From Candidatus Micrarchaeia archaeon (lineage in GTDB: Archaea; Micrarchaeota; Micrarchaeia; CABMEP01), in NCBI GenBank assembly GCA_038886535.1, contig JAVZXS010000001.1, positions 214,259 through 278,258 on the forward strand: a DNA stretch of 64,000 nt, in the 5' to 3' direction. This document shows positions 11,032-61,624 of this stretch, one piece after another. Every line of letters begins with the position of its first letter. Within the stretch, counting starts at the first letter, position 1. The notes beneath the pieces were generated by a model that was not told the DNA's origin, ran no database searches, and saw nothing but the letters and a program-made list of their open reading frames with translations. The translations under genes and the position numbers were made by a program.

Positions 11032-11079
11032 TGTGTTTTGTTTCTTTATCAGTGTTATTTAAATTTTAGTGGTGGTAAG

Positions 11080-11916
11080 ATGGAAAACTTTAAAAAGGTA
11101 AAAGAGGAGAGATCTGAAAAAGAGATTGAATCATTTAAAGACATGAAAAAAGATGACATCTCTAAAATAGAGGATTATGATGAAAAAAGAGATCAAAAGC
11201 TGTGGGACTTCTATTACGCAATTGTAGACAATGATATAAAAACGATAAAGGAATTTTTAAAGGAAGGTTTTAGTCCTAATGAAGAACTTCCATTTCCATC
11301 AGAAAATACAGTATTCTTTGAATCCCTTCCTTATGTGTCTTTGGAAGCACTTGAAATTCTGTACAATCATGGAGCACAAGTTGTAGAATATGATTCTGAC
11401 GGAAACGTTTTTCATACAGCTTTTCAAGAATTGATAGCTTTAGACAGACCCGAAATAATTGAAAAATTGATTGATTTAGGTGCAGATTGGAAGGTTAAGA
11501 ATTTGGGTTGCTCAATGTTATATTATGCATCTAGCTCCGCAAGTTCTCTAAAGGTATTTCTTGAGAAAACAGATCTTGATGTAAACGAAGAAGCAGAAGA
11601 TGGCACTACCCCAATTTACATGGCAGCTGTTCATCATGATAGAGATGCAATTAAGATGCTATTAGAACACGGTGCTTTAATAAACAAACAAGATAAAAAT
11701 GGATTCACTGCTTTGCACCATATCTTCAAATCTGATGATTTAAGAGATGAAAACAAAAGAATAGAAGCGATTAGGCTACTTCTTGAAAATGGCGCAGATC
11801 CAAATATAAAATCAAATGAAGGCAAAACACCTCTTGATTATGCTATCGAAAATAAGTTTCTAGAAGAGGCAGAGGTTTTGCGAAATAAAGGCGCAAAATT
11901 AGGGAAAGAAATCTAA
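11080..11916 (+). CDS. ankyrin-repeat protein
   Basis: GTTPIYMAA...LLEHGA, GFTALHH...LLENGADPN, GKTPLDYA repeats; GGTGG SD. Confidence 0.93.
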   Translation: MENFKKVKEERSEKEIESFKDMKKDDISKIEDYDEKRDQKLWDFYYAIVDNDIKTIKEFLKEGFSPNEELPFPSENTVFFESLPYVSLEALEILYNHGAQVVEYDSDGNVFHTAFQELIALDRPEIIEKLIDLGADWKVKNLGCSMLYYASSSASSLKVFLEKTDLDVNEEAEDGTTPIYMAAVHHDRDAIKMLLEHGALINKQDKNGFTALHHIFKSDDLRDENKRIEAIRLLLENGADPNIKSNEGKTPLDYAIENKFLEEAEVLRNKGAKLGKEI

Positions 11917-24668: not shown

Positions 24669-24698
24669 TTTAAATCGTTCCTTAATTTTGTGATTTTT

Positions 24699-25937
24699 AT
24701 GAAGAACATATCTATTTTAGGTTCTACAGGAAGTATAGGTACTCAGACATTAGACGTTATAAGAAATCATAAGAATAAATTTAGAGTAGTGGGTTTAGCT
24801 GCATATGGTACTGATAAAGATATAGATCTTATGGTTGAGCAGATACATGAATTTAAACCTAAAATCGTATCAATGTACAGAACCGATGCAGCGATTAAGC
24901 TTAAAGAAAGATTGATGCATGATAATTTAGGTTATGGTCAAAAGATAGTGATCCTATCTGGTAATGAAGGTCTTATTTCAGTTTCTACTTTCCCTATGGT
25001 TGATACAGTTGTAACTGCAGTTGTTGGAAGTGTCGGCTTAATTCCTACACTAGAGGCAATAAAGAAAAAGAAAAATATAGCTCTTGCAAACAAAGAAACA
25101 TTAGTGTGTGCTGGAAGCATAGTTATGGAAAATGCAAAAAAGTACGGAGTAAAAATTATGCCAATAGATAGCGAACATTCAGCAATTTTTCAGTCTTTAC
25201 AAGGTAATAAAAAGGAGCAAGTAAAGAGAATAATATTAACATGTTCAGGAGGTCCATTTAGAGATGAAAAATTATGGCCCGCAGAAAAAATAAATGAAGC
25301 GACTCGAGAACAAGCACTTAAACATCCAACCTGGAATATGGGTGGAAAGATTACTATTGACAGTGCAACACTCATGAATAAAGGTTTAGAGGTTATAGAA
25401 GCTCATTGGCTTTATAATATTCCTTATGAACAAATTTCAGTTGTAATACACCCTCAGTCTATAATTCATTCAATGGTTGAATATGTTGATGGTTCTATAA
25501 TGGCTCAGATTGGTGTTCACGATATGCGTATTCCGATTCAATATGCGTTATCCTATCCAGATAGATTACCAAGCGGTGATTATGCATTTTTAGATTTGAT
25601 TAAAGTTTGTAATCTTACATTTTTTGAACCAGATACAGTCAGATTTCCAGCTCTATTATATGCATACGAAGCAGGCAAGATCGGCGGAACAATGCCTACA
25701 GTTATGAATGCAGCAAATGAAGTAGCAGTTGTAGAATATTTCTTACAAGGAAAGATTAAATTCGGTGACATAATAAGAGTAGTAAGACATACGATGGATG
25801 TCCATAAGCATACAGTTGTTCAGAATCCAAACCTTCAAGACATTCTTCAAGCAGATATATGGGCAAGAGAACACGTTCGTTCGGTTTTAAATGTAGTTAT
25901 ACAAGATAAAAGTTGGAAAAATATAAATTCATTCTAA
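24699..25937 (+). CDS. dxr: 1-deoxy-D-xylulose-5-phosphate reductoisomerase
   Basis: GSTGSIG, LANKE, DSEH, SGGPF, HPTWNMGGKITIDSATLMNKGLEVIEA, HPQSIIHS, NAANE. Confidence 0.98.
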   Translation: MKNISILGSTGSIGTQTLDVIRNHKNKFRVVGLAAYGTDKDIDLMVEQIHEFKPKIVSMYRTDAAIKLKERLMHDNLGYGQKIVILSGNEGLISVSTFPMVDTVVTAVVGSVGLIPTLEAIKKKKNIALANKETLVCAGSIVMENAKKYGVKIMPIDSEHSAIFQSLQGNKKEQVKRIILTCSGGPFRDEKLWPAEKINEATREQALKHPTWNMGGKITIDSATLMNKGLEVIEAHWLYNIPYEQISVVIHPQSIIHSMVEYVDGSIMAQIGVHDMRIPIQYALSYPDRLPSGDYAFLDLIKVCNLTFFEPDTVRFPALLYAYEAGKIGGTMPTVMNAANEVAVVEYFLQGKIKFGDIIRVVRHTMDVHKHTVVQNPNLQDILQADIWAREHVRSVLNVVIQDKSWKNINSF

Positions 25938-53062: not shown

Positions 53063-54193
53063 ATGGAAAATCTTAATCATCCTCAAAATTTCAAGAATCA
53101 AAACAAAGATGCGAATTTCTCTTTTGTGAGAGACTGTAAGTTTTCAAAATTATTGCCATCAAAAGAAGAGTTAAAACATTCACTTCTAGAAGCAGGAGTA
53201 ACACCTACAATAGAATATAAAGATTTTATAAAAATGAATTTTAAGATTAAAAATGATTCTCTTTCTGCTCAAACGTTATTAAGAAGATTTGGCGATGGAA
53301 AACGTTCTTCACAGAACCTTGCACGTCTTTTTAGCTGGATCGGTCTTACTTCTAAATATAATACTAATATCTATGATTATTCAGACCCAGCTATAATTAA
53401 GGCAATACTTCTTAATTCAAAGATAAACCTTCAAACAATAAAATTTAAGGAATTCATAAAGAAAGAGATTTGTACAGATAAGTTTATTGGAACAGGAAGA
53501 GAACTAATTATAGAATTTCAAAATTCTTTAATAGATAAACTGAAGAGAAATGAAAAACTTCCTAAAGAACTTTCTAACTTCATTAAAAAATTAAGATCAA
53601 AGGAAAGGAAGTATGTACCATTAAGATCAGGTTTTGAAACAATGCTTGAAATAATTGGGATTATAAATCATAATTATAGTTCAATAAGATATAAACCTGC
53701 TCTCTTAAGAAAGATCTTAGAGTCTTCAGGTGTTGATTTTGACAACTGGTTTGTTTCCATTGTTGATTTTTATAAAATGAGATTCAAAAGCAAAGAATTA
53801 AGGGATCTTGACAGAAGAAACAAGGGGACAATTAGTGGTCAGGCATTGGCAAAAAGGTTTTATGGAACAAATGCACTTAGAAACGAGCATATAAGAGAAA
53901 TCCTAATTACTGCAGGTTATAAACCGAAAAGAGTACTCTTTCCTTCTGAAATTAGAGATCCTAAAGTTCTTTCTCAGATAATAAAATCATGTAGACAGAA
54001 TGTTGACTTTACTAAGATAAGGTTCAAGGATTTCCAGAAGCTTGAGTTCGATTCGAAATATTTTATAGGAAAAGGGCATACGCTTCTAAAGTTGTATGGT
54101 AAGATACGTGCCACTGCTATGAGGGAGCTGCTTAGTAAGGTTGGAATTCTTAATCCAGTTCAAGTAAGTTGGAAGAAAAGAATCGGAAGGTAA
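53063..54193 (+). CDS. basic hypothetical protein with four internal repeats
   Basis: recurring units such as YKDFIKMNF...SAQTLLRRFG and FKDFQKLEF...GHTLLKLYG; BRE-TATA at 53027-53040. Confidence 0.75.
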   Translation: MENLNHPQNFKNQNKDANFSFVRDCKFSKLLPSKEELKHSLLEAGVTPTIEYKDFIKMNFKIKNDSLSAQTLLRRFGDGKRSSQNLARLFSWIGLTSKYNTNIYDYSDPAIIKAILLNSKINLQTIKFKEFIKKEICTDKFIGTGRELIIEFQNSLIDKLKRNEKLPKELSNFIKKLRSKERKYVPLRSGFETMLEIIGIINHNYSSIRYKPALLRKILESSGVDFDNWFVSIVDFYKMRFKSKELRDLDRRNKGTISGQALAKRFYGTNALRNEHIREILITAGYKPKRVLFPSEIRDPKVLSQIIKSCRQNVDFTKIRFKDFQKLEFDSKYFIGKGHTLLKLYGKIRATAMRELLSKVGILNPVQVSWKKRIGR

Positions 54194-54488: not shown

Positions 54489-56480
54489 ATGAAAGGAAAA
54501 GATCAAGGTAATCCAAAAACACCAGAAAGAAATCCAAATCAAAAGCATTCATTACATTCAGAATCGAAAACAGTAGAAGGATTGCTTCCTAAAATAAAAT
54601 CGCCTGATGATTTAAAGAAACTTCCAATAAGTGAATTACCAAAACTTGCAGCTGAAATAAGAGATGTGCTATTAAAAACGATTTCAAAGAATGGAGGTCA
54701 TCTTTCACCAAATATGGGTACTGTTGAATTAACTATTGCATTGCACAGAGTATTTAACTCTCCAAAAGATAAGATTCTTTTTGATACGGGTCACCAGTCA
54801 TATACTCATAAGTTGCTTACAGGAAGATATGAAAAATTCCATACATTAAGACAGCCAGGTGGACTTAGCGGCTTTACAGATCCAAGAGAAAGTGAGCACG
54901 ATCATTTTATTACTGGTCACGCAAGTCCAGCTATATGTCAGGCAATAGGAATGGCAATAGCAAGGGATGAAAAGAAGGAAAACTATGAGATCGTAGCAGT
55001 TATAGGTGATGGTGCACTAACTGGAGGGGTAGCACTGGAAGGTCTTAATTATGGTGGATATGCAGGCAAGAAGTTTATTTTAGTATTAAATGATAATAGA
55101 ATGTCATATGAACAAACGGTCGGAGGTCTGCAGGCATACAACAATAGGCTTTCATTTGGAAACAGAATCTTTGAGAGCCCAATATACCACCAGGTGAGAG
55201 GAGACATTCATCTTTTATTAGATAACGTTCCAAGAGAAAGAGAAGAGCTTCATGCAGCAGTAAGAAGACTTAGGGAGGCGGCTCTTTCAGTGCTTACACC
55301 AGGGATAGTGTTTGAGGAACTTGGTTACAGATATCTTGGTCCAATAGATGGGCACAATATTCCTCTGCTGATTGAAACATTCCAGAGAGCAAAGCTTATG
55401 AAAGGACCAGTATTGGTTCATGTAATAACAACAAAAGGAAAAGGAGTTCCATTCGCAGAACCATCTTCAGATAAACACGGCAAGTACCATGGTTTAGGAA
55501 AGTTTGATCCAGAGTCTGGTGAAATAATAAAGAATCCAGGAACACTTTCACCATACTTTGAAATATTTGGAAATAAACTTATAGAGCTTGCTAGAAAAGA
55601 TAAGAGAATATATGCTTTAACTGCAGCAATGCCTATAGGAAGTGGTCTGCTTCCATTTTCAAAAGAATTTCCAGAAAGATTTATAGATGTGGGAATAGCT
55701 GAGCAAAGTGAGGTTACTATAGCATCGGGTCTTGCGAAGGGTGGAATGAGGCCTGTTGTAGCAGTTCATTCATCTTTCTTGAAGAGAGCAATTGACGAAG
55801 TAATATATGAAGTTGCATTACAGAATCTGCCAGTTGTGTTTGCATTAAATAATGCAGGTCTTGTTGATGATAATGCAACTCAACAAGGTCCATTTGATAT
55901 TGTTTATATGAGGATGGTTCCAAATATGGTTGCAATGGCACCTGCAAATGAGCATGAGTTAGAGGCGATGCTTGAATTTGCTTTGTCCTGGGAGAAAGGT
56001 CCATCTTCATTAAGATATCCAAAAGCTTCAATAACAGGCATGCCAAAGCCACCTGCAGAAGAATTAAAGATTGAGCTTGGAAAAGGAAAGATTGAAGTAG
56101 AATACGGCGAGGATGTAGCAATAATTGCAATAGGAAGCATGGTAAATGATGCAATAAAGGCAGCGGAGTTATTGAAGAAGAAGGGAATAAATGCAACTGT
56201 TGTGAATGCAAGATTCATCAAGCCTCTTGATGAACAACTCATAATAGATGTAGCTTCAAGATGTGGTAGAGTAGTAACTGCCGAAGAGGGGCATGCATTA
56301 GGTGGATTTGGAAGCGGTGTGTTAGAGGTTCTTGCACATAACAACCTTCAAGTGCCTGTCAAGGTATTAGCTATTCCAGATAGATTCTTTGACCATGGAA
56401 AGAGAACAGATATGCTTAAGAGTATCGGTCTATCAGCAGAAGGAATAGCAGAAGCAGCTGAAAGGTTAATTAAAGGCTGA
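54489..56480 (+). CDS. dxs: 1-deoxy-D-xylulose-5-phosphate synthase (divergent acceptor site)
   Basis: GGHL, DTGHQSYTHKLLTGR, GDGALTGG..LNDN, GPIDGH, KGKG, IAEQ. Confidence 0.92.
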   Translation: MKGKDQGNPKTPERNPNQKHSLHSESKTVEGLLPKIKSPDDLKKLPISELPKLAAEIRDVLLKTISKNGGHLSPNMGTVELTIALHRVFNSPKDKILFDTGHQSYTHKLLTGRYEKFHTLRQPGGLSGFTDPRESEHDHFITGHASPAICQAIGMAIARDEKKENYEIVAVIGDGALTGGVALEGLNYGGYAGKKFILVLNDNRMSYEQTVGGLQAYNNRLSFGNRIFESPIYHQVRGDIHLLLDNVPREREELHAAVRRLREAALSVLTPGIVFEELGYRYLGPIDGHNIPLLIETFQRAKLMKGPVLVHVITTKGKGVPFAEPSSDKHGKYHGLGKFDPESGEIIKNPGTLSPYFEIFGNKLIELARKDKRIYALTAAMPIGSGLLPFSKEFPERFIDVGIAEQSEVTIASGLAKGGMRPVVAVHSSFLKRAIDEVIYEVALQNLPVVFALNNAGLVDDNATQQGPFDIVYMRMVPNMVAMAPANEHELEAMLEFALSWEKGPSSLRYPKASITGMPKPPAEELKIELGKGKIEVEYGEDVAIIAIGSMVNDAIKAAELLKKKGINATVVNARFIKPLDEQLIIDVASRCGRVVTAEEGHALGGFGSGVLEVLAHNNLQVPVKVLAIPDRFFDHGKRTDMLKSIGLSAEGIAEAAERLIKG

Positions 56481-60979: not shown

Positions 60980-61624
60980 ATGAGATGTAATATTTGCGGA
61001 AAGGATGTTCCAGCGGGTGAAGGAGAGGATACAGTTCTTGGTTTTGTCTGCAGAGACTGCTATCATGCAAGAGACTTCAAGTTATGTGCAGAGTGCGGAA
61101 GAAGATTTCCAAGAGATGAAATGGTTGAATGGAATGGTTTGTTTTATTGCAGATCTGATTACTTTAGAGCAAAGGAGCGTTTGGAACGCATAAGAGAGGA
61201 GGAAAGAAAGAAGAAGGAAGAAGAGGAAAAGAAAAAACAGCCTCCGCTTCTTAGACCCGGTAGCGGAATAGGAATTCCAATCAAAAGAGAAAAGAAAGAA
61301 GCATTAACAAAAGATGAAATAAATTCTTTACTTGGAAAAATAAACGAAAGAACAACAAAAATGAATAAAATGAAAATTAAAGCAGGCACTGAAGAAATGT
61401 ATGGAGAAACATCTGAAAAAGAAACAATTTCAAAGAAAGATTTAATCTCTATTATTGATTCTTTATCTTCAAAATCTTCAGATATTTTCGATACAGTTAC
61501 AGATGCCACCATAGAATCATTCGGAGATATCTCTCTTTCTGATTCTTCTAGAAGAAAAAGAAGAGACGCAATCAGTGCTGCATTAGAAGAATTAAACGAA
61601 TTATTAAGAAAAAAGAGGAAATGA
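60980..61624 (+). CDS. double zinc-finger (LIM-like) protein with charged tail
   Basis: CNIC...CRDC, CAEC...YCRSDY. Confidence 0.75.
   Translation: MRCNICGKDVPAGEGEDTVLGFVCRDCYHARDFKLCAECGRRFPRDEMVEWNGLFYCRSDYFRAKERLERIREEERKKKEEEEKKKQPPLLRPGSGIGIPIKREKKEALTKDEINSLLGKINERTTKMNKMKIKAGTEEMYGETSEKETISKKDLISIIDSLSSKSSDIFDTVTDATIESFGDISLSDSSRRKRRDAISAALEELNELLRKKRK

Follow-up and report, generated by a model that had tools for sequence, protein, structure and literature searches.

An ortholog of DXP synthase with a probable non-canonical His/Asn/Gln/Lys phosphate pocket in one family of Micrarchaeia

The synthase that forms 1-deoxy-D-xylulose 5-phosphate (hereafter DXP), known as DXS or DXPS, is a much-studied thiamine diphosphate (ThDP) enzyme and antibiotic target, in which the lactyl-ThDP intermediate is held until D-glyceraldehyde 3-phosphate (D-GAP) binds, and both this mechanism and its bisubstrate inhibitors have been built around R420, R478, Y392 and H431 (numbering of the Escherichia coli enzyme, marked Ec below where needed). 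Here, we analyzed a DXS-family gene, dxs, located at 54489..56480 (+) in a stretch of 64,000 nucleotides (the window) of contig JAVZXS010000001.1 from a Candidatus Micrarchaeia archaeon, whose product departs from the E. coli enzyme at all four of these positions. A preliminary description of the window had reported the altered motifs and had taken them to suggest a different, perhaps non-phosphorylated, acceptor, and with it a variant entry into the methylerythritol phosphate (MEP) pathway or a new ThDP carboligase.

The conserved D-GAP pocket of E. coli DXPS consists of R420, R478 and Y392, and the R478A variant has a D-GAP Km of 1400 µM (PMC11019550). The R420A variant turns over pyruvate and D-GAP "extremely inefficiently", and a network of R99, D427 and H431 supports the persistence of lactyl-ThDP (bioRxiv 10.1101/2025.03.03.641193); variants of the same network showed moderate differences in activity (bioRxiv 10.1101/2025.10.24.684457). 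In a crystal of the Mycobacterium tuberculosis enzyme (MtDXPS), phosphate-like density was hydrogen-bonded to Tyr387, Arg415, His426 and Lys473, the equivalents of Ec Y392, R420, H431 and R478, which bears out the earlier statement that these four residues line the D-GAP phosphate site; Lys473 naturally takes the place of an arginine there, and the Km for D-GAP is of the same order (PMC9068908). A complete MEP pathway has been described for the Norongarragalinales, Zaosheniarchaeales and Micrarchaeales, orders of Micrarchaeota, in a paper whose available text names dxs once, as a gene, with no discussion of the active site (PMC12892359), and the pathway has likewise been published for Woesearchaeota, again with no discussion of the dxs active site in the available text (PMC8204110). 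In plants, DXS3 is a DXS-like protein that had no DXS activity in complementation tests (PMC10675008).

The residues of the 663-aa open reading frame (ORF; P0001) were related to those of E. coli DXS by a HMMER alignment to 2o1s_A and by MAFFT mapping onto the protein of E. coli K-12 (NC_000913.3). The segment of domain II that carries the acceptor pocket, at 55764..56030 (+), reads VHSSFLKRA...LNNAGLVDDNATQQG...RYPKAS in translation, and the alignments confirmed that the replacements reported in YSTFLQR, DRAG, DGxTHQG and RYPRG are real at all four positions. H427 (CAT; 55767..55769, +) stands for Ec Y392, and N454-N455 (55848..55853, +) stand for Ec D419-R420, turning DRAG into NNAG. In the string D461-N-A-T-Q465 (55869..55883, +), Ec D427 is kept, G428 has become N462 and H431 has become Q465, and one residue is deleted immediately before the D427 equivalent. 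Finally, K512 (56022..56024, +) stands for Ec R478, a lysine that is common in other DXS, and A513 beside it stands for Ec G479, so that RYPRG reads RYPKA. In place of the canonical D-GAP phosphate ligands Y392/R420/H431/R478, the variant carries H/N/Q/K; the pocket has changed from Arg/Arg/Tyr/His (R420, R478, Y392, H431) to Asn/Lys/His/Gln, with a further Asn at 428. The D419N/R420N pair is charge-neutral as a whole and Asp419 is lost. About 72 positions set the DXS of this clade apart from other DXS, including the otherwise near-invariant, second-shell changes V78T, T125P, I185Y, N188T, H405Y and D406E.

The cofactor site was found intact, as the preliminary description had stated. The ThDP/Mg site of domain I, at 54693..55097 (+), comprises GGHL (residues 69-72, with the H49 equivalent), GDGALTGG (173-180) and NDN (201-203), and it is followed by DGHN (287-290) and IAEQ (403-406). 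The IAEQSE string (55695..55712, +) retains the catalytic glutamate (Ec E370), and at the His that follows (Ec H372) the clade has Ser or Asn. H49, H80, R99, D152, N181, H299, E370, R398 and D427 are all retained; the H49, D152 and N181 equivalents are invariant in the clade and non-clade DXS aligned, as are the GDG-X(25-30)-NDN motif and the cofactor-activating E370, and H49, H299, R99 and D427, which hold lactyl-ThDP and the aldehyde, are retained in 11/11 clade proteins.

The assignment of the ORF to the DXS family was supported by each of several measures. Its score against TIGR00204, the DXP synthase equivalog, was 721.9 bits with a cut-off of 465.95, and the Pfam domains DXP_synthase_N, Transket_pyr and Transketolase_C gave the three-domain DXS architecture; scores against transketolase models were 56-194 bits vs cut-offs of 488-788. 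The top relative in the PDB was E. coli DXS (2o1s_A, 3e-156). An AlphaFold2 model from a 70-sequence alignment had a mean pLDDT of 88.7 and a pTM of 0.86, and its best Foldseek matches were DXPS structures (TMt 0.93-0.94); model and search confirm the fold alone. The protein resembles bacterial DXS as a three-domain ThDP enzyme, 48-53% identical, with the GDG...NDN motif and the proximal residues kept and with Dxr and IspD-H as genomic partners, and differs from them in its archaeal host and in R420N, H431Q, Y392H, D419N, G428N, H372S/N, the deletion and the second-shell changes. The first ~26-30 residues form a low-complexity N-terminal extension, of which residues 1-26 have a pLDDT <50 and are predicted to be disordered. 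Such an extension (from the predicted start codon; 54489-54580, + in the window) is present in the clade at lengths of 25-50 residues, is Lys/Gln/Asn-rich and poorly conserved, and is lacking in bacterial DXS.

The variant was compared with three sets of DXS sequences. The first held the 110 next-best homologs, 48-53% identical, after exclusion of fragment P0002 and of the reference sequence from E. coli; the second held 110 homologs found by a word search with residues 420-520 among the 120 of 146 matches listed, and is biased towards RYPKA words and able to catch other carriers of motifs such as NATQQ; the third held 150 DXS representatives (P0234-P0383) from a 50% clustering. R420, H431, Y392 and G428 were each present in 110/110 sequences of both the first and the second set, and in 141/150, 147/150, 147/150 and 148/150 sequences of the third, respectively. 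K478 occurred in 3/110, 81/110 and 38/150 sequences of the three sets. The variant combination was absent from these 370 other DXS sequences. Among the matches listed in the word search it was seen in the same ten clade clusters only, and the matches outside them were canonical or K478 DXS.

These counts separate the four replacements. The lysine in RYPK, which had been presented as part of the unusual signature, is ordinary: it occurs in many bacterial sequences and in the characterised M. tuberculosis enzyme (PMC9068908). The objection raised beforehand, that such substitutions might be common in verified DXS, therefore holds for K478 and does not hold for Y392H, R420N and H431Q, which are without characterised precedent. 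In the sequences compared, three of the four substitutions, above all combined, are confined to one Micrarchaeia clade. The nine representatives of the third set without Arg at 420 carried His (6), Lys (1), Asn (1) or Met (1), and the non-His residues at 431 were Gln in two and Pro in one; none of the ten odd representatives (these nine and P0274, with Q431) was characterised on look-up. K478 accompanied six of the nine non-Arg420 sequences vs 32 of the 141 Arg420 sequences (p = 0.009 in a Fisher test that takes no account of relatedness), which hints that a K478 background tolerates changes at 420 and suggests that non-Arg420/K478 may be a recurrent alternative configuration of the phosphate site in uncharacterised DXS lineages. 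A literature search, with subscription journals and supplements outside its coverage, found no published report of natural replacements of R420 or H431. The pocket variant, which concerns a known enzyme and an archaeal MEP pathway already in the literature, appears undescribed in print.

The window itself is archaeal, as judged from its archaeal ribosomal-protein operon and its genes for PolD, MCM, PriS/PriL and aIF2, and the genome from which it comes (1.14 Mb in 40 contigs, 88% complete) is that of a very small archaeon from a hot spring, in which the building blocks of the lipids come from the bacterial MEP route. The ten nearest database clusters were 68-98% identical to the variant, those with names being labelled as metagenome-assembled genomes of Micrarchaeota/Micrarchaeia, and all ten share N420, N428, Q431 and K478. 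Among the clade proteins, N420 was found in 11/11 and H392 in 9/11, P0011 and P0012 retaining Tyr. Full-length DXS was present in 17 of 401 sampled genomes of the phylum, seven of them from the host family (f1) and ten from six other families. All seven f1 proteins carry the variant, as do two further f1 genomes (9/9), and N420, Q431 and N428 are fixed across the nine; this fixation within one clade agrees with the concerted substitution proposed at the outset. The residue at Ec392 is His in genera g1 and g3 and Tyr (TAT) in G230, of genus g2.

The canonical DXS of other DPANN archaea (families f4, f9, f12, f16, f23 and f26, and P0113 of Aenigmatarchaeota) belong to the same orthologous group, share a DPANN-type linker insertion and have the same pathway context. 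They differ from the variant in that the ten proteins of the six Micrarchaeia families retain DRAG, T-H-x-G and RYPRG, save for an Ala at H431 in f26. The one-residue loop deletion is shared by f26 and f16, both of which keep R420 and R478, and f16 also carries I185Y/N188T. The nearest canonical relative is the f26 protein (L019, G196), at 55% identity, in which position 431 is Ala and the His is shifted by one position (TAHG). With the loop deletion and the altered H431 alongside retained R420 and R478, the f26 DXS may represent an evolutionary intermediate.

A quick IQ-TREE analysis (LG+G4, SH-aLRT) was carried out on 35 hand-picked rows, namely six f1 proteins, ten from other Micrarchaeia, one from Aenigmatarchaeota, P0124, 16 bacterial proteins and the E. 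coli enzyme; G304, G401, G402 and most bacterial matches were excluded. The f1 DXS formed a clade with 100% support on a stem of 0.33, no longer than the adjoining stems; f26 and f16 joined it with a support of 93, and all three fell within a DPANN group of Micrarchaeia and Aenigmatarchaeota (support 89). This placement indicates that the variant is an ortholog changed on one stem, and neither a divergent paralog nor a contaminant.

Selection on the gene was examined in six of the nine f1 genes, with G304 (stop), G401 and G402 excluded. The ratio of nonsynonymous to synonymous substitution rates (dN/dS) was 0.031-0.037 at a dS of 0.32-0.39 in three close f1 pairs; in distant f1 pairs the synonymous sites were saturated and the proteins were still 65-86% identical. 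The codons of the kept residues have meanwhile turned over synonymously, as AAT/AAC at N420, AAT/AAC at N428, CAA/CAG at Q431 and AAA/AAG at K478. The low dN/dS and the synonymous changes indicate that the variant residues are maintained and are not drifting. The DXS gene is intact in 8/9 family copies; the remaining one, in G304 (L015, G304:C6:13256-15244), carries a TGA in frame where the other copies have GGA for G212, and may reflect a sequencing error, a pseudogene or recoding. Among public runs, none was listed as holding RNA of the gene.

Each of the nine family genomes encodes exactly one DXS above the cut-off (703-726 bits). A second canonical dxs alongside the variant, which had been suggested as something to look for, was found neither in the own genome (88% complete) nor in the nine family genomes. 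The gene for the next MEP enzyme, dxr (24690..25937, +; TIGR00243 513 bits, cut-off 316), lies in the window ~28.5 kb upstream of dxs, and the own genome encodes, above the NCBIfam cut-offs, Dxr, IspG, IspH, IspE and a fused IspD-IspF ORF, a complete MEP pathway. Dxr was found in 7/9 family genomes, the two misses being genomes 54% and 81% complete, and IspH in 8/9. HMG-CoA reductase was found in 0/9 family genomes, and so was mevalonate kinase above the cut-off, the weak matches to which lie in IspE. In G230, dxr follows the variant dxs after 46 bp, and ispG and ispH adjoin the pair. This compact cluster (L040/L018, G230:C1:87369-93234) runs ispH(-), ispG(+), dxr(-), dxs(-), and its Dxr is unusually divergent, with TIGR00243 scores of 194.7 + 42.2 bits, below the cut-off, and with the 11 active-site residues checked kept.

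The Dxr of the own genome keeps the residues of its metal, substrate and phosphate sites that were checked, namely D150, E152, S186, H209, W212, M214, S222, N227, K228, E231 and H257, and the same 11 residues were retained in all seven family Dxr sequences aligned. S186, S222, N227 and K228, which we take from the literature on E. coli Dxr to be its phosphate site, are among them, indicating that the downstream enzyme is built for a phosphorylated substrate. Triose-phosphate isomerase (TPI) is encoded in 7/9 family genomes, the own genome included, and GAP is therefore a metabolite in these genomes. DeoC was not found in the own genome. The sole other ThDP-enzyme match in the own genome, a sub-threshold TIGR00204 hit at G000:C1:115504-117071 that resembled a split transketolase, proved by Pfam to be a 2-oxoacid dehydrogenase E1 alpha and beta pair and is no evidence about GAP. 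It lies in a row (L002, G000:C1:114657-118571) of RibB (DHBP synthase), E1 alpha, E1 beta and a deoxynucleoside kinase.

In view of the observed substitutions, their fixation, purifying selection, orthology and pathway context, we consider it reasonably likely that the variant is a working DXP synthase with a non-canonical His/Asn/Gln/Lys phosphate pocket. With the phosphate-ligand signature altered, homology to DXS and orthology hold, and we infer the activity from the context and not from the signature of the site: a single-copy ortholog under strong selection, MEP-only genomes, a dxs-dxr cluster, an intact Dxr and no obvious deoxyxylulose kinase, as judged from the FGGY family. The enzyme would condense the hydroxyethyl-ThDP derived from pyruvate with D-GAP and so feed the MEP pathway hosted by the archaeon. 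The proximal site is untouched, with H49, H80, R99, H299, E370, R398 and D427 positioning ThDP, the aldehyde and the C2 hydroxyl, and the distal, phosphate-holding end of the acceptor pocket was rebuilt on the stem leading to a single family of archaea. The replacing His, Asn, Gln and Lys residues are all able to donate hydrogen bonds to a phosphate, so that Lys, His and amide donors may still hold a phosphate monoester in the new pocket, which is polar and less cationic. MtDXPS offers a partial parallel, in that it has Lys at Ec R478 and an altered "active site network" around His426 (PDB 7a9g/7a9h); it differs in retaining Tyr387, Arg415 and His426, all three of which are replaced in the archaeal enzyme. 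How tightly D-GAP is bound, and how it triggers the decarboxylation of lactyl-ThDP, have probably both changed, since R420 and H431 take part in both functions in E. coli.

Several observations weigh against a working DXP synthase. With R420 absent and with a Km of 1400 µM for the E. coli R478A variant (PMC11019550), poor binding of GAP is expected unless it is compensated, and H431 has been described as conserved across all bacterial DXPS (PMC9068908). About 15 of the clade changes fall at near-invariant positions, a pattern that resembles a directed shift more than drift. The enzymes around GAP count here as well: glyceraldehyde 3-phosphate dehydrogenase (GAPDH; PF02800) was found in 1/9 family genomes (G391 only) and not in the own genus, the archaeal GAPDH (TIGR01546) was not found in the own genome, and neither TPI nor GAPDH was found in G230, which is 94% complete and whose GAP supply is thus questionable.

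The same observations give some room to the acceptor switch put forward in the preliminary description, in which the specificity of the enzyme would have changed or broadened, for example, towards D-glyceraldehyde or a longer sugar phosphate, making it a variant MEP entry or a new ThDP carboligase. We regard this reading as doubtful, including its D-glyceraldehyde case, in which 1-deoxy-D-xylulose would be formed and later phosphorylated by some kinase. Each of the four phosphate ligands is replaced, in three cases by a smaller side chain, and the pocket is larger and less cationic, with a net loss of positive charge; the E. coli R420A variant is nearly inactive with GAP (bioRxiv 10.1101/2025.03.03.641193); the combination, unique with respect to the 370 other sequences, is held by selection; and GAPDH was not found in the own genus. 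D427, H49 and H299, which hold the aldehyde/C2-OH end (D427 presumably, as we assume from transketolase work), are kept, so that the chemistry would admit a 2-hydroxyaldehyde that differs in length or charge. The genomic context speaks for DXP instead, as the phosphate site of Dxr is kept and DXP is thus still needed, the variant dxs of G230 sits inside an MEP gene cluster, no second DXS was found, and TPI is encoded in the own genome and most of the family. The replacements, moreover, are phosphate-compatible donors, and lysine at 478 is functional in MtDXPS (PMC9068908). A route by 1-deoxyxylulose kinase was looked for through FGGY kinases (FGGY_N), which were found in 0/9 family genomes, other kinase families not having been searched. 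The different acceptor therefore persists as a minority reading. A related thought, to which we give slightly more weight while still holding it unlikely, is that a pocket freed from the Arg pair might accept a non-phosphorylated or longer aldehyde, and so open a new entry to the MEP pathway or a branch off it, or might carry out DXP synthesis without the D-GAP-gated decarboxylation by which bacterial DXPS is defined.

A loss of DXS function, with the protein taking a non-catalytic or different role and DXP arising from a side activity of E1 or RibB, seems to us improbable. Plant DXS3 gives an example of a DXS-like protein without activity and, like the variant, comprises DXS-family proteins with altered ligand-binding features (PMC10675008); these are extra paralogs beside a true DXS, however, and the variant is a single-copy ortholog with an intact cofactor site, not a diverged paralog. 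Its ThDP, Mg and catalytic residues are all in place, it scores far above the equivalog cut-off, and it is encoded in the dxs-dxr cluster of G230. In favour of this reading, the gene for RibB adjoins those for E1 alpha and beta in the own genome, and dxs can be bypassed in E. coli through mutant aceE (the E1 of pyruvate dehydrogenase) or mutant ribB, but the known routes of this kind need mutations and are weak. Least probable of all, and largely refuted by the dN/dS values and the synonymous codon turnover, is decay under relaxed selection in a reduced symbiont genome, where slightly harmful substitutions would have drifted into a gene that is being lost. DPANN genomes evolve fast and are small, and the G304 copy has its in-frame TGA, but the variant residues are kept across orthologs 65-98% identical, eight of the nine copies are intact, the stem branch is not unusually long, and the other MEP genes are retained, with no mevalonate-pathway markers found in the family genomes.

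A DXS that is under selection without three of R420, R478, Y392 and H431 would mean either that Lys, His and amide ligands can take over the recognition of the phosphate or that another acceptor has been explored. If the enzyme is independent of both arginines, it would stand as a natural exception to the rule of an essential R420/H431 in the DXPS mechanism and in inhibitor design. As the only entry enzyme of an archaeon that is MEP-only, it is well suited to testing this, and it has a bearing on the upkeep and adaptation of a bacterial pathway that now makes archaeal isoprenoid lipids. Should the kinetics with GAP turn out to be ordinary, what is left would be a sequence variant that is unusual but silent in function.

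Directly upstream of dxs, at 53063..54193 (+), lies an ORF for a conserved 376-aa protein with internal repeats, whose family is unassigned, as no Pfam, NCBIfam or usable ESM Atlas match was obtained. It is syntenic upstream of dxs in the g1/g3 relatives, with 37% identity in G051 and 31% in G391, and the ORF upstream of dxs in G230 showed no similarity to it. G230, without the syntenic homolog, is also the sole family member examined that retains Tyr at Ec392. Elsewhere in the window, a 214-aa ORF at 60980-61624 (+) gave a Pfam match to the LIM zinc finger (E = 1.3e-5), a domain that is usually eukaryotic. An ankyrin-repeat protein is encoded at 11038-11916 (+); its NCBIfam matches, to ankyrin portions of the Ank effectors of Legionella, have E values down to 4e-15 but scores far below the cut-offs, and most likely reflect mere ankyrin repeats.

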